A stretch of DNA of 63,162 nt, filler included, from Craspedostauros australis (lineage: Eukaryota), in NCBI GenBank assembly GCA_030167865.1. It is 11 parts of 11 records of this genome, joined end to end, with 100 filler letters (N's around TTAATTAATTAA, not from the genome) between each part and the next. Parts side by side here need not be neighbours in the genome. Positions count along the whole stretch, not along the records: positions 1 to 8,221 come from JALAGF010006528.1; 10 more parts are not named here. One strand, written 5' to 3'. The notes below the pieces were generated by a model that was not told where the DNA came from, searched no databases, and saw nothing but the letters and a program-made list of their open reading frames with translations. A program made the position numbers and the translations under genes. Below, one piece after another: positions 2,594 to 51,773 of the stretch. Numbering within the stretch: the stretch's first letter is position 1; each line of letters starts with the position of its first letter.

Positions 2594-4059
2594 GTGGCAG
2601 AGAATAGCATGGTGCATGCTGGTACTGCAGCAGCAGTGGAGGGAAGGGTCCTTGTGAGCTTTGATAAAACTCTCTAGTAATAGCATGAGTGAACCATAGT
2701 ACTATGTAATACTTGGGAACATGAGCACTACGCACATTCTCCAACTTGCTAGGGCTCCGAGTAGTATGAAGGATTCCAGTTTGCTCAACAGCTACTGGCG
2801 TGTCAGAAAGCAACATGGTCGAATTGTGTCATGCCGTTTCACGACAGACAAAGGGCGTCCACGAAGAAAGAAGAACAATCAATACGTTCCGTTCTGTGGT
2901 TGGTTGTAGCAAGGTGGACGATTAGTCATGATCAGGATGACATGACCAGCAATACTTCACACAGCATAGACGTAGACAGCAGACTGAGTGGTTTGTGTTA
3001 ACTTTAGACTTACGTCTTTTCTTAGACCATTTGACAGGCGGATTGGACTGGTCCCGGACATTGCGTACTTGCGTCATCGATGACGTACGTCTCTGCAGCT
3101 AAGCCACACAGTGCTCCCTGGGCACAATCTTCACAATTGGAAGCAGCTGCGGAACAGTCTCCTGCCCTGATGATGATGTCATTGACTGCATCATCAGAGG
3201 CGCCGAGACCAAGACACGCTTCCGCATCGGCGCATGCACCCTCTTCAATGACCAAACTTCCTGCAAGTTTGCCATCGCTGGAGTCATTAGAATACACATT
3301 AACACAAGCTTCGAACCCAACACATGCGTTCTTTCCGATGAAGATATTTGCCACGACCGGTGCCGTGGTAGTCCCTTGGTTGCTTCTGCGACCACCACGG
3401 ACGCATGCATTATCCTCTCCAGTGCACCCTCCCTTTTCAACTCGTACATTGCCAAAAATATTCGATGCAAGGCCAAAGCACGCTCGGGAACCGAGACAAG
3501 CTTGCGGTCCAATCACCCTGTATCCAACCTCAGCATCAGCATTAGGCTGGGTTGGCCTAAACCAACCAAGCGCCTCGCAAGGTCGGTCTGATCCTCTGCA
3601 ACTGTCAAGTATGATGATGTCAGGGTACACCTCGTTGCAACTTCTTTCGGAAGTGCAGGAATTGTCAGTCACCGTCATCACACCAGCTGAAGGCTGGGTG
3701 ATGCAAACGTTAGGACCAACGTAGCACGAACCATCGCAAGCTGAAGCGAGCGCAGATCCTGTCCCAGTGTAGAGCTTCATAGACGCCACTGCGTCCAACA
3801 GTGCCTGCGTCACACTCGCATCGTTCTTGATCTTGTCAAAGCGTTTCTGCGCCACCTGTTGTGTCACGATGTTGGGTGTTCCTTCATGACTGCATCCAAA
3901 GATGCTCTTGATCATCTTGCCCTTGTCACCGAGGGCGTTGACCGCAGCGACAAAGTTCGCACATGTGTCTGTTGCATCACCACAAAAGACGCCGCCAGTG
4001 ACCGCATGAAACGTCGATGAGTCATCTCCCGGTGTTGCGAGACATCCGACGGCGAATGC

Positions 4060-4440
4060 TGGGGCTGAAGTTGGAGCCGATGTAGGGGCCGATGTAGGGG
4101 CTGAAGTGGGAGATTGTGTTGGAGCTGCTGTCGGACCTGTCGGGGATGACGTGGGAGCTGAAGTTGGCGCGCTAGTCGGCGCCGATGTCGGTGCGCTGGT
4201 TGGTGCTGAAGTTGGCACGCTAGTCGGCGCAGCAGTGGGGCCCGACGTTGGTGCGCTGGTCGGTGCCGAGGTAGGAGCCGATGTTGGTGCTGAAGTTGGA
4301 GCCAAAGTCGGGGCGCTTGTTGGAGCGCTCGTCGGTGCCGAGGTCGGCGAAGCAGTTGGAGCTGTTGGGGATGATGTGGGAGGTGACGTGAGAGGTGTTG
4401 GGAAAGGGGTGGGGAAAAAGGTTGGAGAGTCTGTGGGCAA
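4060..4440 (-). repeat. Coding 12-bp period repeat (Pro-Thr-Ser-Ala)n
   Basis: More than 20 PTSA/PTAA units are visible in the translation of ORF 3022-4866. Confidence 0.9.
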
Positions 4441-4823
4441 GGCGTCCTTGCCAATACAGTACTCATCCACCTTGTCACCAGTGGGATTATTGTTGGTGTC
4501 ATTGCCTCCTTTTGGACAGGCCCCATCGACATCGCTGATGATGTAGACTTTGTCGGAGTCGCACTCCGTCTTCGTCATGCATCCTCTGCAGCTATCAACA
4601 CTGCCACATCCACCAGGAGGGACGACGAGGTCGGTTCTCATCCTGTCATGGAAGCCCATCTTCTCACATGACCCATTGGCGGCACAGCCACCAGCACCAA
4701 TGGTCAGGCTGCCTGCATACTTGCCCGCAGTACCATGATTGACAGTGGAATGGGCATCCTTGCAGGCATTGCTGCCGACACATGCATTCACTCCGATATC
4801 GATGCGACTCTGGAAGCGAAAGG

Positions 4824-5219
4824 TGTCAAATGCATAAATAACCACTATGCTACTATGTGTACACATAGTAGCATAGTGGTTATTTATGCATTTGACAAAA
4901 GTAAGAANNNNNNNNNNNNNNNNNNNNNNNNNNNNNNNNNNNNNNNNNNNNNNNNNNTTGGATGAATACTTCGGGAAGGACTGTGTACGTAGAGGGACGG
5001 GCCTGACTGCCTACGGGAGATGCCGGCTCCATCCTTGCCCTAATGCACAACATAGTAGCCTGGGCCCAAGCGGTATCCAAGCAATTTCCGGTCGTAGCTC
5101 GAGTGTGGACTCGAACCCAAAGACACTTGGTTGGTTTCTTACTTTTGTCAAATGCATAAATAACCACTATGCTACTATGTGTACACATAGTAGCATAGTG
5201 GTTATTTATGCATTTGACA
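4824..5219. mobile_element. TG...CA insertion with a 5-bp TSD (AAAGG) and TIRs made of a perfect 74-bp palindrome; contains an N gap, so the true length is unknown
   Basis: AAAGG at 4819-4823 and 5220-5224. Identical palindromes at 4824-4897 and 5146-5219. The TIR continues inward: AAAGTAAGAA at 4898-4907 and TTCTTACTTT at 5136-5145. Confidence 0.9.
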
Positions 5220-7002
5220 AAAGGATGGTGCTGATTGCTCCACACGACGGCCAGCTGCATTGCATGCGTCTGATCCGATACATGCACCGGTCTGGATGGT
5301 GACATCACCATGAGAACGACGTCCCACTCCCTCACAAGAATGAGGGGTGGTGCATGCCATCTCACCGACGAAGGTGACTCCTGTGATGGCTGGGTTGATC
5401 TCGTTCTCATTCATCAACTCACATGCACTTGCACCAGTGCAGGAAGAATCGAGGATGAGGGGATTGGGGCCCATATCCTTGCATGCGCTGTCACTGGTGC
5501 ATGCAGTGATGGCAACAGTCATGAATGGAGGAGAGTTGGAGGCGGAACCGGTGGCTGAGGTGCATCCCGAGGGTCCTTGGCAGCATGGGTCTGCGACAGC
5601 AGGCGATTGCATCGCAGCAATGTCCGCGCATGCTGCCTTCATCGCATCCGGTCGTTCGATGACGAGGAGCTGTTTGGTGGCAGCGACCAGGGCCAATTGG
5701 CCAGCAAGCACGTCATGCGACGCGTACTGGTTGAAGAGCTTGCGTGCGGCTCCTTCACCGAGGTCTCCTGCACATCCGAAGAAGTTTTGCAGCTGCTGAG
5801 ATTCCTTGACAGCGCTGATGGCTTCGCGGCAGGATGATTTGTTCGCATCGCAAATGATGGTCTTGGGGCTTGCCTCTTGTGGTGTGAGGGTGGTGGTGCC
5901 ATCCGGCTGGCAAATGATCTCGATGGTGGAATCAAAGACCGCTGGGGCAGCTGATGGTTTGGATGTTGGCAGGCGGGTGGACTGGGAGGTCGGCGAAGCA
6001 GTCGGCGACCCAGTAGGCAATGCTGCTGGCGCTGTTGTTTCTGCACCAGCTGGGTTCTCAGTGGGTGGCAGTCGGTTGTTCTTGTTGCCCTTGTTGGTGT
6101 TTGCGTCACCGTCGGCGTCCTTAAGGATGCGGGTCTTCATCATCATCATGTGGAGTTCCTCGGTTGGATCCACAGGAATCCTGTTGCCACGGAGAGCAGC
6201 ATGGGTTGTTGCCGTGTTGGTGACAGCGATGAAAGCCACGAAGGCTGCCTTGGCGTAGAGCGTCTTTGCTGTTGTCTTCGTCGCCGTCGTGAGACTGTTT
6301 GGTTCTGCACGTCGGGCGCATTTGTATGTGTGCATGTATGCGTACGCGCCACGAGGATGGGTTGGTACGGATCACGTATGGGTTGAGATTGGCAATGCGA
6401 GCATCAGGCATAAGTTTGGCCGCGAGTTCCGTCCCACGAAGAACGGCAACGATTGTGAGTGTTGCAGTGATGTGTTCGTTTGTGTGAGCAGAATTGTTGG
6501 TGTGTGAAATGACGTGAGACGTGGTGGCGAGCAACGACAACGACAGCAATCAATGATGATCAACAATATCCATCAATCGACACAACATCGTGACAATTCG
6601 ATCACGTCAAGATTGCGCACACAGGAGGCATCAGTTGTGCATGCGAAGAGAAGAGAAGGAACGATGGTGATGGAAAAGAGCAGCTTGAGTTAGATCGGCT
6701 TGGAGTAGGTGCGGGATGTGAGCACCGGAATGTGAAGCAGCGCGCGTCTAGCATCGGCATGACACGAGGCATCCTGGACGAGATGGTCATCATCGACAGG
6801 CGCAGCAGAACCGCTGAACAACGATCCGCGAAGATTGACTGGAACGTAGTAGGTATGGTGCTCATACTCGCAGGTAGCTTGCATCTTGAGCATTGGTGCG
6901 TGATGCCGTTTCACCAGTGCTGCTGCATCATCTGCGACACTATCCGCGGTTCGCGCGCGTCTTGACGTCGGTTTTGCAAATGAATGCACTCTCCGTTGTG
7001 TA

Positions 7003-8221: not shown

Positions 8222-8321
8222 NNNNNNNNNNNNNNNNNNNNNNNNNNNNNNNNNNNNNNNNNNNNTTAATTAATTAANNNNNNNNNNNNNNNNNNNNNNN
8301 NNNNNNNNNNNNNNNNNNNNN
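8222..8321. other. Artificial scaffold linker N44-TTAATTAATTAA-N44. The 12-mer recurs at 21259, 33225, 36242, 40422, 43028, 50724, 54168, 58761 and 61732
   Basis: An identical 12-mer with stops in all six frames is centred in a 100-nt N block ten times. Confidence 0.97.
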
Positions 8322-9902: not shown

Positions 9903-10683
9903 TGTTGGAAATCCGGGGTGGTGGTGATAGTAGAAAGCTACTCGTTTGTTAGAATCTACTTCTCTGAACTGTGAGCTCTTCATTGCTCTCAACTTCCCAA
10001 CTTTGATCTCTTCCTGAGATCTCCATGGGTTCATCTGTTGGTCTAGCATGCATTCATCTTCAATTCATCACAAATTCATCATGGACATGCATGCATCACC
10101 AAGTGCCCCATGTCCGTGCACTCAACACATTGTCTTCTCTCCGATAGTTTCGTTGGCTTAGACATCGTTGAGTCACAGGCATCACTTGGCTCGTTCCATT
10201 CAATTGGATTGTAGTCTCCCATTCTTCACAGGAACAACTGGATGATTGCTCTCTCAGCTTCTCATCATTGCACATCTCCGATACCTCTCCGATCACTTCA
10301 TCGATCCTTCGCTGGTTCGTCATCAGTGATCCGTTCACAGGGTATCTCACACTTCGTGACATCGGCATGTTACAAGTACTCTCTCTTCATTCGCTGCGAC
10401 ATGGGGGCCATAGTCGCGTGTGTCGTGATGTTGGTCACGATTCCAACATCTCTGCCCCCTGCGACATGCACGTGTGATTCGCATTCCCCCATTTAGGTCA
10501 CGAACGCCAAAGTCCGGTTCGCATTCGGCACGTGGCGTTCTCCACCGCAGGACGCGCGTAGCTCACATTTTCTGTCACAAAGATCCAAAGTAGTAGTTGC
10601 GGTAATGTAGCGTTTCTCGACAACGACTTCTTACTCTTGGAAGGTGCGGTAATTTGGTGTTTCAGAACACCCGATTCCTGACA
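9903..10683 (+). mobile_element. TGTTGG...CCTGACA element (solo-LTR-like), no TSD retained
   Basis: Colinear, diverged, inverted copy of 12139-12957 along its whole length. The flanks TGCATG and ATCACC do not match. Confidence 0.8.
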
Positions 10684-11297
10684 ATCACCATCCTGTCATC
10701 CACCGCTGCGCTTCGTCCATGGCTCGCAGATTCCAATCTGCGCATTCCTTCTCCCTCGCAGTCGCCATCATCGGCGCCGTCTGAATCGTGATGCGAGCAA
10801 ATTGCATTGGGCGTTTCCCTTCTGATGTATGATCACTGTCACAGTGCGTGAATACATGTTCATGTCAGGACGAGCGAAACACGAAGCACGCATCCCATTT
10901 TGTGGCGCCATGACATGCGCCACGAACGCGATCTAACTAGGACACAGTGGCGGTTGACGAAAATATGAAGCTAAAGCACACATTAATGAACCAAACAACT
11001 GCCAATTGGATCATGGAATCAAGCTGATATACTCCTCCATGGAGTGCTTTCCGGATGTGTATCGCAACGATTGCTCATTGCCATTGAGAGCGCAACGAAG
11101 GTTGGTGAAGAATGCTGCAATGTAATGCATGTGAGTGAGCGGATTCCAATACATCTTGACCTGGTTCTTTACCCCAGCAGCGGGAAGTTCCTGACAATCT
11201 CCATAAACTCCCACTCGACGCAGATTCGTGCACTAGACATGTCCTTGTTGCACAGAGCTTCAGAAGAACCCCGATCGGTGTTGCCAAATGCACTATT

Positions 11298-11913
11298 AGA
11301 ACGTAATCAAAGATGGGTAGGGTACTGCACCGAAAACGCAGAGTGATCAATTCGTAGTTGTTGGTGAGGATGATTGTTTGATTAGTGTGTTATTCGTATG
11401 AGTAGGTGAAGACTGTCGAGCTCCAAAGATTGAGATCTTGGAACTGTGAGCATGAGAGGCAACTTGCAGGTCTCATGCGATTGCAGATGGAATATAACAC
11501 GGAGACAACACGACAAATGTGCGTGTTACTGCGTGGGTTCAGATTTGCAAGAGTCAGAAAACAAACACCGCGATACGCCGTGTTGTAGGGTGCAACTCCT
11601 CACGATGTTGCGAGTAGAACGATCACACGATTGATCGTATTCACTCGAGAAAGTTGGGGACGGTTCCATATTTATCGGACCCAAGGCCGAAGTCTGTCCT
11701 GATTGGACAGAGTGGTTCATCTTGGCAAGAAATTCATTTCCGCGACATGTTGGAACTGGGATTGACGGGAAAACGGTTCTTGCGACGCAAAATGTGACAC
11801 AAAATTGACACAACGGATTTTCGACCAAAATTTCCGTTCGGAACGGAAATGGTAAGAAATGTGAAGATTTCTGATTGGTCGACGGGTGTCGCTATTGTTA
11901 GGAATATAGCGTT
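11298..11913. mobile_element. About 0.6 kb non-coding insertion in the Harbinger pseudogene; ends approximate
   Basis: It separates ...AYILGAY from SAFGNTDRG.... Its 11770-11911 segment matches 18845-18979. Confidence 0.55.
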
Positions 11914-12138
11914 GCGCTAATATGCACCAAGAATGTATGCAGTCGTTTGGTATGCCGGATCACACAAACAATACAGTGGATCGTGACCAGGCAACGGCAT
12001 CAATTCGCGCATGCGGTCTTCAACTTCACTCTCACGCAGCATGTACATGTCATGGCGGGCGCCCAGGATGGGCCCATAGTAATGAAGAATCAATCCGTCT
12101 GCACCAACAATACCTTGAAACTTCACTCCATGCAGATG

Positions 12139-12957
12139 TGTCAGGAATCGGGTGTTCTGAAACCCCATATTGCCGCACCTCCCAAGAGTAAGGAGCCGAA
12201 CGTTGTGATATTCTACATAACCGCAACTCCCACGTTTGATCATTGCGACACAGAAAAATGTGAGCTGCACGTAACTCGCAGTGGAGAACGCCACGTGCCG
12301 AATGCGAACCATGCCTTGACGTTCATGACTCCAATGCAGGAATGCGAATCACACGTGTATGTCGCAGGGGGCAGGGATGTTGGAATCGTGACCAACATCA
12401 CGATACGAGCGACTACGGCCCCCATGTCGCAACCAATGAGAAAAGAGTACTGGTGGAAGGCTGATGTCACGAAGTGTGAGATGGCCTGTGAACGAACCTG
12501 AGATGAGGAACATCCAGGAAGCCGGTGAAGTGATCGGCAAAGAAACCAGCAGAAACGACAGGAGAAGCATCGGAGATGATCGGAGATGTGAGATGACCGA
12601 GGAGCTGAATGAGCTCCCAACCAAGGTGTTCCCATTACAAATGGGAGACCGTGATCTGATCGAATGAACCAATCTGTGTGATGCCTACGACTTGGCGATG
12701 TCTAAGGCATCGAAACTATCAGCGGAGGACAACGTGCTTGAGTGCACGAACATGGGGTACTCGGTGGTGCATGCATGTCCATGGTGAAATTGTGATGAAT
12801 GCAAGATGGATGCCTGCTAGACCAACAGAGGGACCCATGGAGATCTCAGGAGGAGATTGGACTTGCAATTGAGAGCAATGAAGAGCTCACAGTTCAGAGA
12901 AGTAGATTCTAACAAACGATTAGTTCTCTGCTATCACACCACCCCGGATTTCCAACA
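12139..12957 (-). mobile_element. 819-bp TG...CA element with a 6-bp TSD (CAGATG)
   Basis: CAGATG at 12133-12138 and 12958-12963. Excision restores the transposase frame (GHKHL-HGVKFQG). Confidence 0.9.
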
Positions 12958-21214: not shown

Positions 21215-21404
21215 NNNNNNNNNNNNNNNNNNNNNNNNNNNNNNNNNNNNNNNNNNNNTTAATTAATTAANNNNNNNNNNNNNNNNNNNNNNNNNNNNNN
21301 NNNNNNNNNNNNNNCCATTATGAACACAAGATACCTTTCGAACAGGGGGTGACCAGGACCGAAACGATCGTATAACGTCAATCGAAAAAATTATGAAACC
21401 CTGG

Positions 21405-23000: not shown

Positions 23001-23444
23001 TATGCATATTCAGGACGAAGACCAATAATGCATGGAAGATGCAGTGCATAGACTATCAAAAGACACCCTGGCAAATGGGGCACGCCAGCAAGTTGGAAGC
23101 ATATGAAGGAACATCCGAAGCAGTTAGGCAAGTATATCAAGAATTGGAGGCTGTACAAGCGTAACGAGCAGGATTGCGCAAAAGGAGCAAGATCCAGATC
23201 GAAACGTGGATGGGATACACGATTCATAACGATCCATTGAGTCGATACGCTTAACGGGACTAAGGTCGTGACTCGGGATAGGGGCGCGCCAGCCTCGCCA
23301 GTTATGAAATTATGAGCCACGCAAACACCTCCAATTCCGGACATGCGCGAGTCACAAGATGTGGGACGAAAGCGACGCACAAGATCTGTGGACTGTCCGG
23401 CGCTGCCACAATTCATCACGACGAGGTTTCGTCCCCTTCTTGGC

Positions 23445-23618
23445 AAACCGGGATACGTATGAAACCGTTGAAACGGCGTTACACGATAGCCGCTACTACC
23501 AATCATGGACGACACAGCAATGCGACAACAGCACTGACGCATACGACATCGATAAGACTCATAATCTGCATCTTCACTCTTTTTCACTCTAAATCGGTTT
23601 CACGTGTGTCGTAACTTG
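23445..23618 (+). repeat. 5' LTR (174 bp)
   Basis: Direct repeat of 30356-30529; I see two transition differences. Confidence 0.93.
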
Positions 23619-24095
23619 GTTTATCATTCTCATCCGCTCATGCGGGCATGTGCGAGCGTGCAGGGACCGCCTGAAGAGGCGACGATAATACTGGGACCCC
23701 GCTCCGAGGGTGGACCGTCACCAAGCCGGCACTGCTTGTACTGTGCTGCATCCTCTTTGACCATGGTGTGCTGATGCAGAGTGACCGGCATCAGCGGGAT
23801 GTAATCTCACCGTTCGCATTGCGAGGTGTTGATGACACCGGTGGACGCACCGACCGTGGTCACACGGAAATCCCTACTGAGACACACGCTGTTATCAGCG
23901 GAAAGATCGTGTGCCTTATTGCCCGGTCTGTGCTTCTCATCGCGGATCGACACCGCGAAAACACACGTTGAAACGCTTTTTCACGTCGAAAACACACCAT
24001 GTCCCAGTGTGATTTTCTTGACAACACAATCCCTCTCTCCCTTCACTATTCCTCTCTCATTCGCATCAACAACATCATACACAAACATCAGCAAC

Positions 24096-25589
24096 ATGGC
24101 AGCCGCTGCAAACCCCAACATCAATGAGATACGTGACTATTGCAAGAACGTACTCAACTTTCCTGACGACGACATCGCTGACGCGTTAGAAGATCAAGGT
24201 CTCACGAAGTTCGATGACTTTCTCTCCATCGATGACAAAGGCGTCACTGACCTGTGCAAGCGCATCTGCGATGGCAGTGGGTTCATTGAAAACCCAGCAT
24301 ACAAGGCAGGCGCAAAGGGCAACATACCACCACAAGTCAAGGATCCCGGGGTCACCGTTGGTTGGATTCACGAGACCAAGCTCCGTCAGCTTCGCTACAT
24401 TCGCTTTCACTTTAAGCGCATTCAACGTCCATTCACGGCAGCAGAGGCACCGATGGACCGTCTTGTTGCTTTATGGGAGCTCTTCTTGGAGGAACAACGT
24501 ATCAAGAAAGAGACAGAGCTGGACATGCCAGAACGGCTGGTCAAAGTGGACCGAATCCGTGACAGTCTTGAGGACATCCAGAACTACTTGGAGAACACCC
24601 ATGGCGCGCTTGACACTCCGCTCTCCTACGTGATCCGTGAAGATACGCGCAAACCCGAAGACCGTACGCCTCCAATCAACACCGGATTCGGTGTACCCAC
24701 CATGAAGGAGGAGCTCATTGACCGAGCCATTCATGAAGGCATCCGCTACGACGCTGACAATGCCAAAGTGTGGCAGGTGGTTCGTCATGTCACGCACGGC
24801 GGACCTGCATGGGCTTGGGTCCAAGGCTTCGAGCGCGCACGCAATGGTCGTGCAGCATTCATTGCTCTCAAGGAACACTATCACGGCGACTCCTTTCAGG
24901 CGCGCACCAAGGCAGCAGCATCCAAGACGATTGCAACCAGCTTCTATGACGGCAAGTCACGCCAATTCTCGTTCGAACGATATGCACAGATCATGAAAGG
25001 TGCATTCGAAGACATGGCACGATGCGGTGAACCACTCGTGAAAGCGGCGAAAGTGCGCCACTTCCTCGATGGTATCCGTGACTCCCGTCTCGATAGTGCA
25101 TGCGTTGCTATCAAGATCAACGAAGCCCTTCGTGAAGACCTACCTGGTGCAATCAATGTCCTGAGCGAAGTCATTGACCACAAACAGATCGCGTCACCCA
25201 GACTCTCCATTGGCTCGATGGACCGTGGCAAGGGCGGTCGTGGCAATCGTAATGGAACGCCAAGCAAGGGTGGTCGCGGAGGTCAAGGCAAACCCAAGAA
25301 ATACGACCCGAACATGGTCATCACTGACCGTCACTACTCACCCGACGAATGGTCGGTCATGTCATCCGCACAGAAGAGCAAGGCACTTGAGATGCGTGCG
25401 GAACGAGACAAGCGCCGTGGGGTCATGTCGGTGGGCAGAAACACGCCATCGAAACGTCCTCATGAAGAGACCGATGGGCATTATGGGCCAACTGATGCGG
25501 CGAACCAAGGCGACGGTCAAGCTGGCGCTAACAATCAAGCCGGAATCGGCAGCATGGCCACTCGTCGTAACCAACAAGGACGTTCCTGA
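24096..25589 (+). CDS. gag: Copia Gag
   Basis: PLSYVIRE, DNAKVW, RNGRAAFIALKEHY, YDGKSRQFSFERY and YSPDEW motifs. The first plausible ATG is at 24096. Confidence 0.85.
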   Translation: MAAAANPNINEIRDYCKNVLNFPDDDIADALEDQGLTKFDDFLSIDDKGVTDLCKRICDGSGFIENPAYKAGAKGNIPPQVKDPGVTVGWIHETKLRQLRYIRFHFKRIQRPFTAAEAPMDRLVALWELFLEEQRIKKETELDMPERLVKVDRIRDSLEDIQNYLENTHGALDTPLSYVIREDTRKPEDRTPPINTGFGVPTMKEELIDRAIHEGIRYDADNAKVWQVVRHVTHGGPAWAWVQGFERARNGRAAFIALKEHYHGDSFQARTKAAASKTIATSFYDGKSRQFSFERYAQIMKGAFEDMARCGEPLVKAAKVRHFLDGIRDSRLDSACVAIKINEALREDLPGAINVLSEVIDHKQIASPRLSIGSMDRGKGGRGNRNGTPSKGGRGGQGKPKKYDPNMVITDRHYSPDEWSVMSSAQKSKALEMRAERDKRRGVMSVGRNTPSKRPHEETDGHYGPTDAANQGDGQAGANNQAGIGSMATRRNQQGRS

Positions 25590-26161: not shown

Positions 26162-26770
26162 CAGTTGAGATTCAATGAGGGACAGACTATTACCGGATAC
26201 GGTATCAACCAGATGAGAGAAATTCTTGTTTTGGCGCGAAATCTTCCGACTTGATTGACCACCAAACCTTTTTCTCCTCCTTTCTCTCCTCCATTCACGA
26301 ATCCATCATGACTCAAACATGACCGACCTGACTCAAAATCCACCTTGGGAACTATATGCTCCTCAGATCCCTTTACTGCAACATATCTCGATTCCCTCCA
26401 TGCTGATGACTACTGCACCACTGCCGTAGTCTTAACGCGTGTATCCAACCTGCTTCAACTCAAGCAATGGAATCTGAGAGCCAGCTCCAACCACAGCCAC
26501 TGCTTCATGGTCGTCACTGCCATGTGCCATGATCTACACTGCAGTGTATCTACGTGTGTGGAGGGCAAGGCGCTGTAATGACTGTATACCCTGTAGCACT
26601 GAACCAAGTACATCAGTGCAGGGTCTCGCCAAGTTGTGTGGCATCGTTTCTTCACCCTACTAACACTACAAGCTAACTCATAATAAACACAGACAAGGAT
26701 TAGCTATAAAGCACTCTACTACTCATCGTTACAGTTATAACTCTTCAAACAGCACACCTCTCTTGAACTG
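26162..26770. mobile_element. About 610-bp non-coding insertion nested in pol (solo LTR or MITE)
   Basis: CATCA occurs at 26159-26163 and 26771-26775. The ends read CAGTT...AACTG if the TSD is CAT. It interrupts pol between the protease and the integrase. Confidence 0.75.
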
Positions 26771-29700
26771 CATCACACGGCTATCCCGAAGCCGGCAGAT
26801 TCACGAGGCATTCTCCACCGATTCGACGTCTACGCCCGAATCCTAACTCCATCCGAGCGTCTCTTTCATCACAACGGACCATATCGTCCATCAACATCCA
26901 TGGCACACACACGTCCAATCGAAAGGGGACTATCACACCCGACGTCCTCGCACAACGCTGGCGCATTGGAACAGAAGCCGCATCACGTACCCTTGACGCA
27001 ACAACACAGTTGGCCATTCGTGACTTTCGTCACTCATCAGGAACACGCCGTCTTAATCCATACGCCATGCAACTACGATACCGTCGACTCAACACCCAAC
27101 TCTATGCCGACACCATGCACGCAAAGACCAAGTCGATTCGTGGCAACAAATGCGCCATGATCTATTGCACACCGTTTCACTGGGTCCGGGTGTACCCAAT
27201 GGCGGAACGCAAGGAAGCACATCGCACACTCGACGAACTATTTCGTGACCATGGCATCCCGCACACCATTATTCCAGACAATGCCAAGGAACTCGTCGCT
27301 GGCGAATTCCGCCGCAAACTACACAGATCACAAGTTTCCATCCGACCAATCGAAGCATACATCCACAACCAGAACAAGGCAGAAGCAACCATTCGCGAAC
27401 TGCGACGACATTATCGACGATTGATGACTTCGACCGATACACCAGAATATCTGTGGGACTATTGCTTCGAATACTGTGCCGAGATACGCAGTCACACTGC
27501 ACTCGCCATCCATGATCTTCACGGCGAAACACCGGCCACCATCTTGTCCGGTGACACTGCTGACATCTCTCACATTGCTGAATTCGGCTGGTTTGACTTC
27601 GTGTGGTATATCAACATCCAAGACGCATCCATGAACATCAAGCAGCTTGGTCGGTATCTTGGGCCAAGTCGCTCTGTTGGTGATGCAATGTGCTCGTACA
27701 TCCTCACTGCCAATGGCGTTGTTGTCTCCAAATCATCTGTTTTGCCTCTCTCTCACGACGACATACACAGCGACGTAATCGCGCACAAATGCAACGAGTT
27801 CATGGACACACTTCGATCCAAATGGAAACAACGAATGGAGGGCATCACAATCGACGACGACGGCGACGACGTTGACGATACTGCAGCAGACATCGCCATT
27901 CTGCAGAACACCGAACCACTGGAACAAATCGTGGAACCAGATGACGTTGACAGTGCGACCTTCGATAAATACATTGCAACCAAAGTCATTCTACCGTCAG
28001 GGGACGAGATGCAACATGGAACAGTCAAACAACGCAAACGAGACACAGAAGGCAATCTCATCGGCCACTCGCATCCCGATCCTATGCTTGACACCGCCCA
28101 ATACGAAGTTGAATTTCTTGATGGACATCACGAAGTGTTCAGCGCCAATCAAATTGCGGAGAACATCTACGCGCGCATCGATGACGACGGATACACGACT
28201 GTGCTGATGGACGAAATCATTGATCACAAACGCTTGCCCTCTGTTTCTTCTCCTTCTCCTCATTCTAAATCCACAAAAGGTTGGAAGCTCTGCATCCGAT
28301 GGAAGGATGGGTCCACATCCTGGATTCACCTACGCGACGCAAAAGAAGCCGACCCAGTACGCGTTGCCGAATACGCTGCAGACAACAAACTCATCAACGA
28401 ACCCGCATTCAAGTGGTGGGTACCACACACCCTGCGCAAACGACAACGCATCATCATGGCAACAAAGCGGCGACACGTCCGAAAGAACGAGATGTTCGGC
28501 GTGGAGCTTCCTACATCAGTGCGCCACGCACTCGCAATCGACGCGGCTACAGGCACGGATCTGTGGCGACAAGCTATTGCAAAAGAGATGAAAGCCGTTC
28601 GACCAGCCTTCGATATCAAGGAACTGGATACTCCCGATCCTGTGGGCTACCAATACATGGAATGCCACATGATATTCGCCGTCAAGGTGGACCTCACAAG
28701 AAAAGCGCGACTTGTCGCTGGGGGACACATGACGGAGGCACCTGCAACAATCACATACGCGAGTGTGGTGTCACGCGAAAGCGTACGCATCGCGTTCTTG
28801 ATCGCCGCACTCAACGATCTGGATATCCTCGCCGCGGATGTTCAGAATGCATACCTCAATGCTCCATGTCGGGAACGCATATACACACGATGCGGTCCGG
28901 AGTTTGGATCCGATCAGGGGAAGATCGCAATCATTTGTCGGGCCCTGTACGGATTGAAGTCGAGTGGAGCAGCATGGAGAGCACACTTGGCAGAGACACT
29001 GCGCGATTCGTTGGGATTCACATCCTGTCGTGCTGACAGCAACGTCTGGATGAAGCCTGCTGTTGCGAGCGATGGGTCAGAATATTACGAATACGTGCTC
29101 GTGTACACCGACGATATCCTTGCCGTATCCAAACAACCGCGACGCATCCTTGATGCGATTGACTCACATTTTTTCCTCAAACCGAGTTCCATTGGCCCTC
29201 CAACAACATATCTTGGATCCACCATCTCACAATTTCACCTCACTGCCGATCCGTCACGTCCCAAATGGAGCATGGGCTCACAAGAATACATCAAGTCTGC
29301 TCTCAAGATCGTCGCCAAATACCTCAACGACCACAACCTGCGACTCAAGACCAAAGCACCCAGTGTCCTACCAAACAAGTACCGACCTGAATTGGATGGA
29401 TCACAACTGTGTGACTCCGAGCAAACAACCTTCTATCAGCAACTCATTGGTATACTGCGCTGGACTGTGGAGCTTGGACGAATCGACATTTGTTGCGAGA
29501 CCTCGATGATGGCATCGTACTGTGTCGCGCCACGGATTGGTCACTTGCATGCTCTCTTTCATATGTTCGCATACCTCAAATCTCACGATCGTTCTCGCCT
29601 TGTTTTTGACGATGCATACATTGACAAACCGCCTGTGATGCAACCCAACTGGAACGATTTCTACCCTGATGCTCATGAGCAATTGCCTGCTGACATGCCA

Positions 29701-30183
29701 CCGCCGCGCGGAAAGGAGGTTCAAATGACGTGCTTTGTTGATGCTGATCATGCAGGTGACCGCGTCACGCGACGCTCGCGCACTGGTGTGCTTTTATTCT
29801 TGAATACATCACCGATACTATGGTACAGCAAGAAACAGAACAGCATTGAGACATCCACATTCGGCAGCGAGTTCACGGCGCTCAAGGTCGCAACCGAGAT
29901 CATCATCGGCATGAGATACAAGCTCCGCATGATGGGCATCCTGTTGGATGGCCCAGCGGATGTACGGGTCGACAATCAGAGTGTGGTATACAACTCCTCA
30001 CTACCAGAATCACAACTGCGGAAGAAAGCCAATGCCATCGCATATCATTTCGTCAGAGAAAGCATCGCCGCTGGTATCCTGGTGGTCCAACATGAACCGT
30101 CAGAGACCAACTTATCCGACATGCTTACGAAACAACAACAAGGACCGAGACGAAAGGAACAAGCACAACGGGTCCTCTTCTGA
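26771..30183 (+). CDS. pol: Copia pol C-terminal part (integrase, reverse transcriptase, RNase H)
   Basis: LAQRWRIG...TTQ, integrase D/D/E (YADTM, IPDNAKE, KAEAT), KARLVAGGH, DVQNAYL, LYGLKSSG, YTDD and DADHA. Confidence 0.95.
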
Positions 30184-30355
30184 CCTCGGCGCTGCGCGAC
30201 AGTACCCATGGGTGGTCGGTCATGGGCTCTGCTCGTGACTGGTGGGATGAGCGCCCTGTGGTGTCCACATGTGGGGCATGCAGCAGGTACATCCCGAATG
30301 CAACCAAAATGTGACGATACGACGGCTAGCACAGCCACCGCGCATCGAGGGGACC

Positions 30356-30529
30356 AAACCGGGATACGTATGAAACCGTTGAAACGGCGTTACACGATAG
30401 CCGCTACTACCAATCATGGACGACACAGCAATGCGACAACAGCACTGACGCATACGACATCGATAAGACTCATAATCTGCATCTTTACTCTTTTTCACTC
30501 TAAATCAGTTTCACGTGTGTCGTAACTTG
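30356..30529 (+). repeat. 3' LTR (174 bp)
   Basis: Direct repeat of 23445-23618, preceded by the PPT. Confidence 0.93.
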
Positions 30530-32989: not shown

Positions 32990-33280
32990 AATGGAACCGA
33001 CACATCGAAGGGAAGGGAGAGAAAGATAGATTGCTGTCCTGCACGAGCATCCGTACCTGCATTGTGACAGTAGAATCTGTGTTTGCCTACTGGATGGCTC
33101 TCCCTCTGTCTACGAGTTGAGAGACAAAACACCGATATTGATTACGTATTTGACTTGAATAGAGTAGAGTACACAGAATANNNNNNNNNNNNNNNNNNNN
33201 NNNNNNNNNNNNNNNNNNNNNNNNTTAATTAATTAANNNNNNNNNNNNNNNNNNNNNNNNNNNNNNNNNNNNNNNNNNNN

Positions 33281-36197: not shown

Positions 36198-36339
36198 NNN
36201 NNNNNNNNNNNNNNNNNNNNNNNNNNNNNNNNNNNNNNNNNTTAATTAATTAANNNNNNNNNNNNNNNNNNNNNNNNNNNNNNNNNNNNNNNNNNNNAGG
36301 TCATGAAGGTACCTATTCTGTCGTGTTGTATCGTGCGTT

Positions 36340-40377: not shown

Positions 40378-40481
40378 NNNNNNNNNNNNNNNNNNNNNNN
40401 NNNNNNNNNNNNNNNNNNNNNTTAATTAATTAANNNNNNNNNNNNNNNNNNNNNNNNNNNNNNNNNNNNNNNNNNNNGCCA

Positions 40482-42890
40482 ATGGTCAAGCATCAAGGCC
40501 AAACACCCATCGAAAGATTCACAGGTGCACAGGTCAGACCACAGCTGAAACACTTCCACACATTCGGATGCCCAACATACGTACTCAACTCAAGGCTGGC
40601 ATCAGGAGGAAGCCAACCCAAGTGGCTATCACGCTCACGGCTCGGCATCTACATCGGCATCTCACCAGTTCACGCCAAGTCAGTTGCTCTGATACTCAAT
40701 CCAAGAACCGGATTGGTCTCTCCTCAATTCCACATCAAATGTGACGACATGTTCCAAACTGTGGCTCCAGACATGGACAACAACCACAGCAAATGGAAAC
40801 AGCTAGCAAAGCTAAGTCCACAGCTGGGCCACAGCAAGAGCAAGACAAAACGCATCACGATGCCCGAGGGAGCTCCTGAACAATACATCAACAAGCAATC
40901 AGCGACTGTGGCAGAACCCGACACCGAGGAGACTCTGCAGAACCAAGACATCGAGACTGATGCCATGGTGGACGAGAGACTGCAACAGAACGCACCAACA
41001 ATGGATCAGAACCAGATCGGCATCGGTGAGCAACCATCAGATATCGGAGAGGATGGCGCGGTTGCAGGGCAACACCCCACAACGGCACCAACAGGCCTCA
41101 GGCGATCGAGCAGGAACAGAACACCATCGCGCAAGGTATTGGAGAACATCGAGACAGGCGTAGTCGCCATCCCAGCGGCATACGAGGTGGCCAACTACCA
41201 TCTTGACCATGACAGCTTCGACCCTACGGCATATGATGACCCACTAGCATTCGCAGCCAGTGCGGACCCAGATACGATGTACTATCACCAAGCAATGGCA
41301 CAGCCGGATCGAGACAAATTCAAAGAGGCCATGCAGAAGGAGATCGATGCACATCACGACAACGGTCACTGGAAGCTGATCCCACGCACACAGGTTCCCA
41401 AGGAGCACAAGGTGTTATCATCGGTATGGTCCATGAAACGAAAGAGACGGCTCAAGACGAGAGAGGTATATCGATGGAAGGCTCGGCTGAACGTCCATGG
41501 CGGTCAGCAGGAGAAGGGAGTGAACTACTGGGAAACCTACGCCCCAGTGGTCACTTGGATATCCATCCGGCTGGTCCTCATACTCAGCATCATGCTCGAC
41601 TGGCACACCAAGCAGGTGGACTTCATCCTGGCATACCCGCAGGCTGACGTTGAGACCACCATATACATGGAAATACCTACTGGAGTGAAACTACAAGGGG
41701 GCGACAACAAGTCCCACGTCCTCCAACTCGTGAAGAATCTGTACGGACAGAAACAGGCAGGGCGTGTGTGGAACGAACATCTGCACAAAGGCCTACTCGA
41801 CATGGGATTCGTGCAAAGCAAATACGATAGATGCGTCTACTACAAGGGAAGGACAATCTTCCTTGTATACGTCGACGACGGCATCCTTGCTGGGCCAGAC
41901 AAGGAGCAAGTGGAAGAGATCCTCGCCAACATGCAGTCCAAATACAACATGACTGACGAGGGAGACATCACAGACTACCTTGGCGTGCACATCACCAAAA
42001 TGGAGGATGGAAGAATCAAGCTGGCACAACCACATCTCATCGATCAACTGGTCGAAGACGTCAACTTCAGGCCAAACACTCGGCCTCGCGACACACCAGC
42101 ACAATCGACCACCATCCTCAACAAGGACGAAGATGGACCACCACACAATGCAGCATGGCACTACAGATCAGTGATTGGAAAGCTCAACTTCCTTGAGAAA
42201 TCCACGAGAGGAGAGATAGCATATGCAGTGCACCAGGCAGCCAGATTCTGCCAAGACCCAAAGAAATCGCACACCAATGCAGTCCATCACATCATACGAT
42301 ACCTGAGATCAACCAGAGACGAGGGAATCATCCTCGATCCCAAGGACAAGGGTTTCGAATGCTATGCAGACGCAGACTTTGTGGGACTATGGAACAAGGA
42401 GACAGCGGCAACAGACCCCAGCACATCCAAGTCCAGAACCGGCTACATCATCATGTTTGCTGGATGTCCAGTGACGTGGGCATCCAAGCTACAGACGGAG
42501 ATCGCTTTGAGCACCACCGAGGCAGAATTCATCAGCCTATCCACAGCTCTGCGTGAAGTCATACCCATGATGCACATGCTGCAAGAGATGTGTGACCTGG
42601 GAATCACGCCAAACCGATACAAGCCCAAAGTCTACTGCAAGGCATTTGAAGACAACTCAGGCGCACTCGAAATAGCCAGAATGCCGAAGATGAGACCCAG
42701 AACCAAACACATCAATGTCAAGTACCACCACTTCAGGCGCTACGTTGAGAACAAAATGATCGAAATTCTACCCATCTCATCAGAGGAGCAACTTGCAGAC
42801 CTATGGACCAAGCCATTGTCATCGGACTTGTTCCAACGGTTCACACAGCTCACGATGGGATGGAGACCAGGCGCACCAGCATCCGAATGA
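40482..42890 (+). CDS. pol: Copia pol fragment (integrase C-terminus, RT, RNase H) of a third Copia lineage; 5' truncated
   Basis: FGCPTYVL, SPQFH, KARLNVHGG, WETYAPVV, NLYGQKQAG, YVDD, YADADF and STTEAE; no stops. Confidence 0.95.
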   Translation: MVKHQGQTPIERFTGAQVRPQLKHFHTFGCPTYVLNSRLASGGSQPKWLSRSRLGIYIGISPVHAKSVALILNPRTGLVSPQFHIKCDDMFQTVAPDMDNNHSKWKQLAKLSPQLGHSKSKTKRITMPEGAPEQYINKQSATVAEPDTEETLQNQDIETDAMVDERLQQNAPTMDQNQIGIGEQPSDIGEDGAVAGQHPTTAPTGLRRSSRNRTPSRKVLENIETGVVAIPAAYEVANYHLDHDSFDPTAYDDPLAFAASADPDTMYYHQAMAQPDRDKFKEAMQKEIDAHHDNGHWKLIPRTQVPKEHKVLSSVWSMKRKRRLKTREVYRWKARLNVHGGQQEKGVNYWETYAPVVTWISIRLVLILSIMLDWHTKQVDFILAYPQADVETTIYMEIPTGVKLQGGDNKSHVLQLVKNLYGQKQAGRVWNEHLHKGLLDMGFVQSKYDRCVYYKGRTIFLVYVDDGILAGPDKEQVEEILANMQSKYNMTDEGDITDYLGVHITKMEDGRIKLAQPHLIDQLVEDVNFRPNTRPRDTPAQSTTILNKDEDGPPHNAAWHYRSVIGKLNFLEKSTRGEIAYAVHQAARFCQDPKKSHTNAVHHIIRYLRSTRDEGIILDPKDKGFECYADADFVGLWNKETAATDPSTSKSRTGYIIMFAGCPVTWASKLQTEIALSTTEAEFISLSTALREVIPMMHMLQEMCDLGITPNRYKPKVYCKAFEDNSGALEIARMPKMRPRTKHINVKYHHFRRYVENKMIEILPISSEEQLADLWTKPLSSDLFQRFTQLTMGWRPGAPASE

Positions 42891-42983: not shown

Positions 42984-44084
42984 NNNNNNNNNNNNNNNNN
43001 NNNNNNNNNNNNNNNNNNNNNNNNNNNTTAATTAATTAANNNNNNNNNNNNNNNNNNNNNNNNNNNNNNNNNNNNNNNNNNNNTTCGGATAGTGTTTGAG
43101 TCAGTGGTGATTCATGAATGAGTGTGGGAGAAGGAGGGAAAAGGGCGATTGTTCCGTATTTGTTGGTTGGGAGGTTTCGCGCCAAAATTTCGCGCCAAAA
43201 TAATTTCAAGGTGCGACAAGGAACACACTGAGTGAAAAGTAGTCCGTTCTTTAGATGAACTTCAACTATTTGGAACAAAATGACGTACTCATTTCGACGT
43301 TACGGGCGTTAGTTCGAGTCGAAACTGTGATGACGTGTTTCTTCTTGTCGTTAAGTGCATGGCAACGTCGCATGTTCCATGTTGAGTGACATCGTCAAGC
43401 TCACGAGTGGTTGGACAGACTTTTTATTTGATATCTTCGTCCCACCTGTTTCAGATCGATGCTGATTCTCACGGTTTCTGGGTCGCAGAGGCATGTTTGC
43501 CAATTCGTCTCGAAAGTGCATTTGGGACACTCGTCGTGCGATGAAAATGAAATCCACTGTATTTGCGTTTTGCATCACGTGTCGCCACACAACACGGCAG
43601 AGAGTCTTTCGTTGCTCATGCGATCCTTTTGCGCTGGTTCGATTCTCGCTTTGTTCTCCGTTCTGCACTGCGCGTTTTTGTTGAGTGACCTTGTGTCATA
43701 CTCCTCTACATCCATCACAGCATCATGTGCACTGCATGCTCTATGCACACCCTACTATTCTACTCTGCATGATGTTGCTTTTCTGCATAATAGATCTGGA
43801 TTGTTTGCCAACTGCTATCTTTGTTATTCTAACATGGTGCACAATCACCTCCATCACTGAATGGGAAAGAATAGCCTTTCGCATCTTTGTCTTCAGGTTG
43901 TTTGTGTGTCGGAATGCGCATAGGTGTATGTGCATTACTCACCCATTGTTCTCTTGCACTCTCTGTGCAAACGGCGCTAACATTCGTGTCATCAATGAAG
44001 CATGATTGAGTGAATCACATCACGAATTTACGCGCGCCAATGTGTTCACCATTTCGGAAGGCAATGGGTGAACAACATTATCTG

Positions 44085-44874: not shown

Positions 44875-45244
44875 CCGACGACAGTATTGCGACTCCAATG
44901 ACAGCGAGCACCATCCAACGTTGGTCACCACGATTCAATGAACGACTCGTGTCTCAACAAAGATGCAGTTGCAACAAGGCCAATGACAAAAAACAAGACT
45001 CAGAAACAATCCGGCTCGCTCGACACAACAAAGCAGGTCTTTTTGATCAACGGCAACATGAGATCGATCACATCACAGAGGAAGAACTCAGCAACCAGCC
45101 AACCGATTGGCATACCGACATTCACCAAAAAAGGAAGCAAAGGCAGCAGAGACCCTACAGAGCTAGCAACACAACCATTGACAGAACATTGCCAACATAG
45201 CGCAGACCAACTCATCAGTCAACAATACAAGCAGTCAACCAACC

Positions 45245-47054
45245 ATGTATCAAAGGCACAAACCTGGGAGGCAACTGATCATTCGAGGGGCCAGCCGAAG
45301 CAGCGGATCAATCTCACATCAGCAGGGCGAGTCTGCACACCAACGAACCATTCGAGGTACCAGCCGAAGCAGCACACCAACCGCACATCAGCAGGGCGAG
45401 TCTGTGCAACAACCAACCATTCGAGGTCCCAACCAAAGCAGCAGATCAATCTCACATCAAGAGAGCAAACCTGCACACCAACCAACCATTCGAGGTACCA
45501 GCCGAAGCAGCGCACCAACCCCACATCAGCAGAGTGAGTCTGCACACCAACCAACCATTCGAGGTACCAGCCGAAGCAGCAGATCAATCTCACAACAGCA
45601 GGGTGAGTCTGCACGGCAACCAACCATTCGAGGTCCCAGCCGAAGCAGCGTACCAACTGCGCATCAGCAGGGCAAGTCTGCACACCAACCAACCATTCGA
45701 GGTCCCAGCCGAAGCAGCAGATCAATCTCACATCAGCAGGGTGAGTCTGCATGGCAACCAACCATTCGAGGTCCCAGCCGAAGCAGCAGATCAATCTCAC
45801 ATCAGGAGAGCAAACCTGCACACCAACCAACCATTCGAGGTACCAGCCGAAGCAGCACACCAACCCCACATCAGCAGAGTGAGTCTGCACACCAACCAAC
45901 CATTCGAGGTACCAGCCGAAGCAGCAGATCAATCTCACAACAGCAGGGTGAGTCTGCACGGCAACCAACCATTCAAGGTACCACCCAAAGCAATCAAGCA
46001 AGACAACTGGCCACCCGAGACACCTGTGAAGCCAGACACAATGAAGCCGGCAATGAGACCACCAATGATGCAGCTGATGTTGCCTTCTTGACTCGCGATG
46101 AGATTCTGGAGCTTGGCCTGAGATATGCTGGTTTCCGGCAAAAAAGGATGGCAGAACGAACCAGAACAGATCGCTTTTCTGCGATGTATGGCTTGAGTCC
46201 GGAGAGCTTTGGATGTCTATTCGTTGATTTAACCAATAGCAAGCAAGAGCACAAAGTGAAGCAGCCACGCCCATACGAAGTCTTTGTTGTCCTGAATTGG
46301 CTCAAACAGTACAGCACAGAGCATGCAATGGCCGGTCGTTGGCATTTGGATGAGAAAACCATCCGATCTCTCATTTGGTCGTACATACCAGCAATTCAAG
46401 CATTGCTCCCCGAGAAGGTAAGTCAGTGTGCACACATTGCTCTCACCTTCATTCATTGCCTCTTCTGACAAAGCCCTCATACTTGCATATCTTTCATTTC
46501 TTTGGCTCGTCCTCTCCCAGGTTGTCTGGCCCCCTAACAGCCTCGAGCTATCTGGCGACGACAAGCACTTCCTGATCAGTGTGGATGGAGTGCATGTCAA
46601 GATCTATGAGCCAAGGATGGACCCAGGGACGAAGTGGTACTCCCATAAATCCCACTCTGCTGGGTTCACGTACGAGCTTGGCATATCGTTGGCCGAAAGC
46701 AAGTTGGTATGGATCAATGGTCCCTTCCCAGCCTCCACATCCGATCTTGCAATGTACCGAAAGCCCAATGGTCTGAGGTCCAAACTGCCACCAGGGAGCA
46801 TGGTGATTGCTGATGGTGGGTATCGCAATGAACCCACGATCAGTGCACCAAATCCAATGGATTCGGCTGCTGTCAAGAAGTTCAAGAACAGAGCGAGAGC
46901 TCGCCATGAGAGCTTCAATGGGAGAATAAAAAGCTTCAAAGCACTTGTGCATGACTATCGCAACCAACTCGATAAGCACCAAAGTGTATTTGAATCATGT
47001 TGCATTTTGATTCAATACGAATTGGACAATGGGCATCCAATATTTGAGATATAA
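45245..47054 (+). CDS. Harbinger/DDE_Tnp_4-like transposase; exons 45245-46417 and 46521-47054
   Basis: The GTAAGT...CTGAC...CCCAG intron at 46418-46520 joins LPEK to VVWPP. Motifs: ISVDG, WYSHK, YELGI, WINGPFPA, IADGGY and ARARHESFNGRIK. The start codon is tentative. Confidence 0.9.
45269..45985 (+). repeat. 69-bp coding minisatellite, about 10.3 units (QPTIRGTSRSSRSISHQQGESAH)
   Basis: ATTCRAGG recurs every 69 nt from 45281 to 45971. Confidence 0.92.
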
Positions 47055-50679: not shown

Positions 50680-51773
50680 NNNNNNNNNNNNNNNNNNNNN
50701 NNNNNNNNNNNNNNNNNNNNNNNTTAATTAATTAANNNNNNNNNNNNNNNNNNNNNNNNNNNNNNNNNNNNNNNNNNNNTCTGCACCTTCATCCCATCCT
50801 AATGTCGTACGTACAGCGCAGTGCACGTACGTACCATCGCATTCTGATGCAGTTTTTCTCCTCCACACCTGTTCCAAGTCCACTGCGAGAAACTGCGTGC
50901 AATCAATTGGGGCCAAAAACAGCCGAAATGTTGATCCGTTCGCACGACTGTAGACACGTCTGAGTTCAGCTTCGAGTGCCTTGCTGTGAGTCCGTCTCAG
51001 AGAGGAAAAAAGGACATTTTCGCCGCTCGCCGACGTCCAACTTGAAGACAATGACGAGTCGCATCCATGTCCGATCGAAAGCTAAAAACCTAAAGCACGG
51101 GCTACTGTGGGGAATTTCTCAACTCAAGCCCTCATAACTTATAAAATATAAAGTGTAGCAATTCTAGGAAAGTCAATCCGTCACTTTCTCATATAGAGGA
51201 ACATCATATTAAATTTATAGGGAAATCTGAGAGGACTTCCCGAGAAAGGTGTACTATTTTCGCTCAGGCGGGTCATAAGTCAGACATAAACAACTCAAGG
51301 TTCAACAGAAAGACGAAGACGACTCCTTCAAGACTACACAGTGTTCGCCGGGATTGGCATGTGGCGCGTACAATTCTCTGCTTGTCCGTTTCGTGCACGC
51401 AATTTGTTAAGTTCATGCAGAAAACACCGCAAACAACCCTCTTCTTCTGTGCAGAATAGGAACACTCATACTTAAGAGAAGCGACGATTCCAGAACCATC
51501 AGAATCAGTCACTGAGACGAGTGTAGATAAATTGTGATCTCCTCTAACTTTTTACCTTGGCCTGTCTGTTCGTGTTTGTTGCGGAGCTGCGAATCTCCTA
51601 CTTCCAGAAAGACAAGCAACCACAACTTCTACTGGTGGCTCGTGCGAGTACGTTGTCATCCATCAACCATCTGTCTATGGATTATTCTGTCTATCCATCA
51701 GTCCATTACTTGCGATCCTGCAGATCGCATTCGATGCACTCACGAAAACACTTGTGCCCATAACAAACACCTG

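Follow-up and report, generated by a model that had tools for sequence, protein, structure and literature searches.

What interrupts a cysteine-rich protein gene of the alga Craspedostauros australis, and what kind of enzyme put it there? The question arises at positions 4824-5219 of a stretch of 63,162 bases (the window, by which the whole stretch of DNA that was analysed is meant throughout), which was drawn from a draft eukaryote assembly (GCA_030167865.1) and consists of 11 small scaffolds strung together, with adjacent pieces that are not genomic neighbours. The answer favoured here, with a probability of roughly 0.55, is that a small, non-coding and non-autonomous transposon with terminal inverted repeats (TIRs), resembling a MITE (a miniature transposable element with inverted repeats), has newly inserted into an exon of this gene, whose product carries PT repeats, and that it was mobilised by a DDE enzyme supplied in trans. 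The element is unclassified, and its ends are of the type associated with the integrases of long terminal repeat (LTR) retrotransposons; its unusual part is a double terminal palindrome, represented by one copy in a weak assembly.

The host gene is encoded on the minus strand. The upstream part of its open reading frame (ORF) lies at 5220-6335, with the ATG at 6335, and the downstream part, which encodes PT repeats in a cysteine-rich product and matches DUF7640 weakly, at 3022-4823. The element between them is bordered by a target-site duplication, AAAGG, on the left at 4819-4823 and on the right at 5220-5224; as the bases next to the two copies do not match, the duplication cannot be extended and measures exactly 5 bp. 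When 4824-5224 was deleted (396 + 5 = 401 nt, the element and one copy of the duplication), the minus-strand frames fused into a single ORF of 971 aa with no stop. The best homologue, P0001 (729 aa, JGI record), aligns to the upstream piece with its residues 3-193 (75% identity over 191) and to the downstream piece with its residues 195-727 (46% identity over 602), with one residue between the two aligned segments. It is collinear and shows no gap across the insertion site, reading RRVKQSAPSFRYRS at the junction where the restored ORF reads RRVEQSAPSFRFQS (...QSAPSFRFQS...). As P0001 is continuous across the site, the interruption is missing in a relative; it is located within an exon. The stretch 4824-5219 is thus a real insertion, and a recent one; a host ORF that is otherwise undamaged in both parts, and the identity of all four copies of the palindrome arm described below, are in keeping with this. 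A recent insertion whose removal restores the frame had been put forward from inspection of the sequence, and the duplication, the 971-aa ORF and the gap-free homologue all bear this out. No second, empty copy of the host locus was present in the window.

An introner was considered and rejected, as no GT...AG pair was found in any register of the duplication on the minus strand of the gene. On the plus strand the junctions AAAG/GTGTCA...ACAAAAG/G (4819-4826 and 5216-5225) do form a GT...AG pair that would remove exactly the element and one duplication; it is without effect here, with the host gene on the minus strand and no gene on the plus strand.

The two ends of the element carry an identical 74-nt sequence, at 4824-4897 (starting TGTCA) and 5146-5219 (ending TGACA). 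Both are perfect, spacerless palindromes with arms of 37 nt and the centre TGTGT/ACACA. The 37-mer arm occurred four times in the window with 0 mismatches, always within these two palindromes, against an expected count of 0.00, and 0/100 shuffles reached this number. The runner-up spacerless palindrome in all 63,162 bases has arms of 10 nt; with a spacer of up to 12 nt allowed, the runner-up has arms of 16 nt. The inverted repeat extends beyond the palindromes by 10 nt inward, to the final base ahead of a gap, and matches at 84/84 positions (4824-4907 against 5136-5219). Each TIR therefore consists of the 74-nt palindrome and 10 inner bases, AAAGTAAGAA on the left (4898-4907) and the complementary TTCTTACTTT on the right (5136-5145). 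The left inner bases are the last of the left contig, so the inner limit of the 84-nt TIR is set by the assembly. The termini of the element are TGT...ACA, in full TGTCA...TGACA. Because the AAAGG duplication and the inner 10-mer AAAGTAAGAA both begin with AAAG, the right palindrome extends to 41-nt arms and the ends also form a direct repeat of 78 nt (4824-4901 = 5146-5223). When a script paired perfect inverted seeds (12 nt or longer, no more than 4 kb apart) that have a direct repeat of 3 nt or longer on their flanks, this was the only pair in the window. The original prediction had described identical 74-bp palindromes at both ends, an inverted repeat running at least 10 bp further inward and TGT...ACA ends bordered by AAAGG, and each of these features was recovered by sequence comparison.

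The known sequence of the element amounts to at least 346 nt. As single-stranded DNA, the 74-mer has a predicted hairpin of -38 kcal/mol (z = -18.2). The known interior (4958-5135, 178 nt) contains no domain and has an ordinary predicted fold (z = +0.99). Base composition also separates the parts, with a GC content of 0.31 in the TIRs (0.32 in the left 74-nt palindrome), 0.55 in the interior and 0.56-0.57 in the flanking exon. Within the interior, 5050-5059 duplicates 10 nt of the palindrome arm (ACATAGTAGC; blastn E about 1-9); this copy could be a subterminal binding motif or a product of chance.

Could the palindromes have been made by the assembly or the library, for example as a fold-back chimera or a linker, with no insertion in the organism? 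The draft is poor: its 63 kb are broken by 64 runs of N, contig ends are redundant and linkers join the scaffolds. The ten linkers are identical, each a 12-base spacer that has stop codons in every frame, set between two runs of 44 N (8222-8321, 21215-21314, 33181-33280, 36198-36297, 40378-40477, 42984-43083, 50680-50779, 54124-54223, 58717-58816 and 61688-61787). An artefact, however, would not yield an exact 5-bp duplication of host sequence whose removal restores a 971-aa ORF, nor would it place the same palindrome beside four different unique junctions. Palindromes are moreover not a general product of this assembly, as no other spacerless palindrome with arms of more than 10 nt was found in the 63 kb. 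An origin outside the organism is accordingly hardly credible.

A gap of 50 N (4908-4957) separates the left TIR from the known interior. The window has 11 gaps whose length is exactly 50 N, this one included (starting at 4908, 34447, 39685, 44389, 52521, 53076, 56198, 57222, 59806, 60763 and 62285), and nine of them join contigs that overlap or repeat each other: six show exact end overlaps of 10-262 nt, and in three the beginning of the right contig falls 397-733 nt within the left one. The two without direct overlap are the gap in the element and the one at 39685. The overlapping contigs are unmerged or redundant, possibly haplotypes at 96-99% identity. As 9/11 of these gaps lie between overlapping contigs, a run of 50 N serves as a placeholder and does not measure a distance; the true size of the gap at 4908-4957 is not given by its N count and is probably small or nil. 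The suggestion that this gap hides the coding part of the element therefore becomes unlikely: it probably hides little, and kilobases of coding DNA are not expected there.

The known sequence was also searched for coding capacity. No Pfam family was found in the two frames running through the known 346 nt. An 88-aa frame through the element had no protein match at near length; against 1.84 billion representative proteins it gave two matches (E about 7e-4), both to a 15-residue repeat motif. The minus frame, compared with longer proteins, gave no match. Judged by these searches, the known 346 nt is without coding capacity. In the window as a whole, Pfam scans covered 18 ORFs and 100 out of 153 ORFs with a length of 110 aa or more, the other 53 having been left out by eye as mostly frames overlapping longer ORFs. 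The scanned ORFs contained none of the enzymes that had been proposed as candidates (integrase, pPolB, HUH or protelomerase); the only relevant matches were to Copia-type reverse transcriptase (RT), in two ORFs, and to DDE_Tnp_4 of the PIF/Harbinger type. With its TIRs, its target-site duplication, its small size and its lack of coding capacity, the element, over the length known so far, resembles a MITE.

Which enzyme could have moved it? The termini TGTNR are given as the rule for Gypsy LTRs and for Ginger elements in the available text of PMC2836005. The accessible parts of PMC2836005 and PMC6839031 set out, as hallmarks of integrase-type elements (LTR elements, and Ginger2/TDD-4 and TDD-5), ends of the form TGTNR, a duplication of 5 bp and TIRs 40-270 bp long, the last being the range of Ginger elements. 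From the ends alone, our best guess is a DDE enzyme of the integrase type that acts in trans, because TGTCA fits TGTNR, the duplication is of 5 bp and the TIR length falls within 40-270 bp. A retroviral-integrase-like DDE enzyme had been suggested before: its terminal signature agrees with the published hallmarks in ends, duplication and TIR length, and an integrase ORF to go with it was not found among the scanned ORFs of the window.

Among the integrase-type DNA transposons, Ginger2/TDD elements have TIRs of about 50-180 bp, AT-rich RTATAY targets and duplications of 4 bp, or 5 bp in TDD-4/5 (PMC2836005, in the part available). The present element shares with them its TGTCA (TGTNR) ends, an 84-nt TIR that lies within 50-180 bp, a 5-bp duplication, which is the value of TDD-4/5 only, and the character of a cut-and-paste element with LTR-like ends. 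It differs in several respects. Metazoan Ginger2 makes duplications of 4 bp; the target here, AAAGG in an exon with a GC content of 0.56, is not an AT-rich RTATAY site, which at one site is a weak test. The available text of PMC2836005 mentions no palindrome within TIRs. An autonomous Ginger2/TDD partner would encode an integrase-like transposase, with an H2C2 zinc finger and a DDE domain and lacking RT and RNase H; no such ORF was among those scanned in the window.

The same ends also raise a second possibility, that of a solo LTR or a miniature LTR element (like a terminal-repeat retrotransposon in miniature) derived from a Copia or Gypsy retrotransposon whose integrase inserted it. LTR elements duplicate 4-6 bp of their target; TG...CA ends are typical of them, as is a duplication of 5 bp, which most of them have (PMC6839031, in the text available). 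The element is small, its two 74-78-nt copies are direct repeats as well as inverted ones, and ORFs for Copia-type RT occur in the same window. What follows the repeats does not fit. No TGG-initiated primer-binding site adjoins either of them (the left interior is visible for 10 nt), and in either orientation a purine-rich AAAGTAAGAA stands at the position expected of the primer-binding site and a pyrimidine-rich TTCTTACTTT at that expected of the polypurine tract. The element has no similarity to any other sequence in the window, including the 175-nt direct repeats around Copia ORFs, so that it has no matching LTR there. To our knowledge there is no LTR with perfect terminal inverted repeats of 84 nt. 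An LTR origin is consequently improbable.

Two further classes were tried and rejected. Hairpin-end HUH elements (IS200/IS605-like and Helitron) make no target-site duplication and carry subterminal hairpins that differ between the ends; here the 5-bp duplication is true, as removal restores the frame, and the two ends are identical. Maverick/Polinton elements make a 6-bp duplication, have the termini AG...TC and encode pPolB and an integrase (PMC6839031, in the text available), whereas the present element has 5 bp and TGT...ACA, and no pPolB or integrase ORF was among the scanned window ORFs.

Several observations weigh against a MITE-like element of the assembled form moved by an integrase-type enzyme. 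A single copy is present in the window and none was found in the metagenome or viral contigs searched; no stand-alone integrase ORF (rve without RT) was among the scanned window ORFs; and AAAGG in a GC-rich exon departs, at this single site, from the RTATAY preference of Ginger2. The terminal 84 nt of the left contig are the exact reverse complement of 5136-5219, the right inner junction. Since the 74-mer is self-complementary and this string is the right inner junction reversed, neither the left palindrome nor the 10 bases on its inner side have independent support, and the double-palindrome structure depends on how the assembler threaded a repeat. If the assembled structure is real, the AAAG common to the duplication and the inner 10-mer is a coincidence of 1 in 256.

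These points lead to the alternative that only the 74-bp palindrome lies at the site, as a minimal MITE of two abutted 37-bp TIRs, and that the inner 10-mer and the 178-nt interior come from another copy in a different part of the genome, the contigs having been misthreaded through the 78-nt direct repeat (4824-4901 = 5146-5223) that both contain and afterwards joined by a 50-N placeholder. The lack of independent information at the left contig end and the overlapping or redundant contigs at 9/11 of the 50-N gaps speak for it. So does the shared AAAG, which is explained better by two independent, similar target sites flanked by AAAGG and AAAGT than by chance. Fully palindromic MITE-like elements are documented, moreover, in Blepharisma, where the accessible text of bioRxiv 10.1101/2022.05.02.489906 reports 376 completely palindromic internal eliminated sequences (IESs). 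Such misthreading would nevertheless require two chimeric contigs, both with the same foreign flank. It accounts neither for the 10-nt stub nor for a left contig that goes on for 6 nt beyond the branch point before it ends. The end of that contig coincides exactly with the inner edge of the 84-nt repeat, 10 nt past the palindrome, and this is where a stop would be expected if the TIR were 84 nt long: should the two inner sequences differ beyond these 84 nt, a graph assembler, if one was used, would meet a branch at that point, and the left contig would end there. The contigs at the 4908 gap also have conflicting overhangs, of 6 nt and 188 nt, unlike those at the nine overlapping gaps. A solitary 74-bp palindrome at this site is thus unlikely. 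For the structure as assembled, with both palindromes and the interior at the site, we put the odds at slightly better than even; the double terminal palindrome is unusual, and probably real in the organism.

How would the favoured element, a MITE-like transposon with a palindrome at each end, have been moved? A DDE enzyme supplied in trans, of the type of LTR-retrotransposon integrases or Ginger2/TDD transposases, would have integrated it by linking its 3'-CA ends to a target whose two strands are cut 5 bp apart, and the 84-bp TIR would carry the binding sites of this enzyme. The outer 74 bp of the TIR are two copies of one 37-bp end sequence, abutted head to head. Each 74-mer, which itself starts TGT and ends ACA, would then be a complete minimal two-ended substrate, and this would point to a family with the 74-mer as its smallest member. 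By analogy with compound transposons, it also suggests that pairs of 74-mers may be able to move the DNA between them. Solo 74-bp copies with 5-bp duplications would be predicted elsewhere in the genome, and perhaps other pairs of 74-mers around other cargo.

The nearest published likeness to a single 74-mer is the palindromic Blepharisma IES or MITE, a short element made of one perfect or near-perfect palindrome, as described in the accessible text of bioRxiv 10.1101/2022.05.02.489906, for each 74-mer is likewise a single palindrome, equivalent to two TIRs without an interior. The present element differs in that two palindromes bracket at least 198 nt of other DNA and carry a 10-nt inverted extension, and in its end type, TGT...ACA with a 5-bp duplication. 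Pairing recalls another class. Composite transposons carry cargo between two copies of a smaller mobile unit, as do the bacterial transposons bounded by insertion sequences. Here two identical, self-sufficient end units surround an interior whose GC content is host-like (0.55 against 0.31 in the ends), which fits a pair carrying cargo; unlike two independent insertions, however, the two units have inner flanks that repeat each other in inverted form over 10 nt.

Parvovirus inverted terminal repeats consist of a palindrome and a short non-palindromic stretch at each end, the palindrome being T-shaped. The ends of the element are similarly built of a palindrome and a short non-palindromic stretch, and both ends are identical. 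The element differs in that it is inserted in a chromosome next to a duplicated target site, measures a few hundred bases, carries no genes and has a simple palindrome, and no replication enzyme was found for it in the scanned window ORFs. The anatomy is compatible with this likeness, and also with the idea that the terminal palindromes are replicated hairpin telomeres of a family with hairpin-ended or cruciform intermediates. The perfect spacerless palindromes at both ends, the 10-nt TIR extension, the strong predicted hairpin (z = -18) and a palindrome centre, TGT/ACA, that equals the outer ends would all suit such a family. Ordinary DDE integration suffices, on the other hand, for the 5-bp duplication; the known 346 nt is without coding capacity, no enzyme was found among the scanned ORFs and no second copy in the window, no extrachromosomal form was observed, and the data cannot tell replicated hairpins from a TIR that merely contains a duplicated end. 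A hairpin-telomere origin has a small chance of being correct. For DDE transposons in general, the available text of PMC1978519 describes an atypical Ds element with which an adjacent inverted repeat moves along; end structures of this kind can therefore arise around them.

A broader proposal would combine these features in an undescribed integrase-type family of a diatom-like alga, with TGT...ACA ends and a 5-bp duplication, in which the 74-bp palindrome is mobile alone or in pairs and the composite ends extrude hairpins or cruciforms. We regard this as rather unlikely. If the assembled structure is real, it would be a transposon end made from two abutted copies of the same end, with a left and a right end in one palindrome. 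Minimal palindromic MITEs could then give rise, in a simple way, to cargo-carrying composite elements, and DNA transposition of the LTR-integrase-like Ginger/TDD type would become known from a stramenopile alga as well. Because perfect 74-bp palindromes are fragile sites, an exon insertion that contains them naturally marks very recent activity. With one copy known, from a draft assembly of poor quality, the practical value of the element is that of a lead for further study.

Relatives of the element were sought in the window and outside it. No second copy of the element or of its 178-nt interior was present in the 63 kb. A 24-mer of the element end had 0 matches in metagenome contigs and 0 in viral contigs, and an internal 23-mer had 0 matches in viral contigs. 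An 18-mer of the end matched 74 metagenome loci, at which further identity averaged 19.4 and did not exceed 27 of 66 bases, and judged by these alignments all 74 are chance matches. Two gapped 12-mers found one viral contig, L001, in which the common part is only a repeated motif of 12-15 nt. At 4970-5090 of L001 there are five tandem copies of a unit of roughly 21 nt that contains 12-15 nt of the element end, and one of the copies is an 18-nt palindrome. The array resembles iterons; with no similarity beyond the short motif, its likeness to the element is taken as chance. The literature searched gave no description of TIRs ending in perfect palindromes or of this end sequence, which is weak evidence of absence.

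ARAGORN found no tRNA, and Rfam gave no tRNA match; the only Rfam matches were sub-threshold ones to microRNA hairpins (the best at 57 bits, where the gathering score is 101), which any perfect hairpin would give. What we take to be the A-box consensus of RNA polymerase III is matched perfectly in each palindrome arm, at 5164-5174 (-), 4842-4852 (-), 4869-4879 (+) and 5191-5201 (+). The sole window match to the presumed B-box consensus lies in the interior at 5107-5117 (-), 57 nt downstream of the A-box at 5164-5174 (-). The pair is possibly a tRNA-derived or polymerase III promoter-like piece.

The remaining Pfam content of the window comprises PT repeats, DUF4215, Copia-type RT and the weak match to DUF7640; diatoms and other protists supply most of the PT-repeat matches. 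Copia-type elements are represented by ORFs at 23805-25586, 26767-30180 and 40479-42887, with RVT_2 at E = 2.4e-17 and 1.2e-44. The first element is bracketed by 175-nt direct repeats (23444-23618 and 30355-30529) that are 99% identical, lie 6,911 nt apart, and neither begin with TG nor end with CA.

Harbinger elements make 3-bp target-site duplications; Harbinger-type mobilisation of the palindromic element is ruled out by its duplication of 5 bp. A full DDE_Tnp_4 domain (E = 3.4e-14), that of a PIF/Harbinger-type transposase, is encoded by the ORF at 46422-47051 (+), which adjoins a 69-nt tandem array at 45132-46052. A long inverted repeat at about 9960-10600 and 12230-12900, with at least 640 nt per arm at 87% identity and still continuing at the outer edge of the alignment, encloses a DDE_Tnp_4 fragment at 11920-12348 (-), which scores below threshold (E = 1e-4, 22.4 bits against a cut-off of 24.8). 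The stretch 9960-12900 is probably a decayed PIF/Harbinger-type element with long TIRs.

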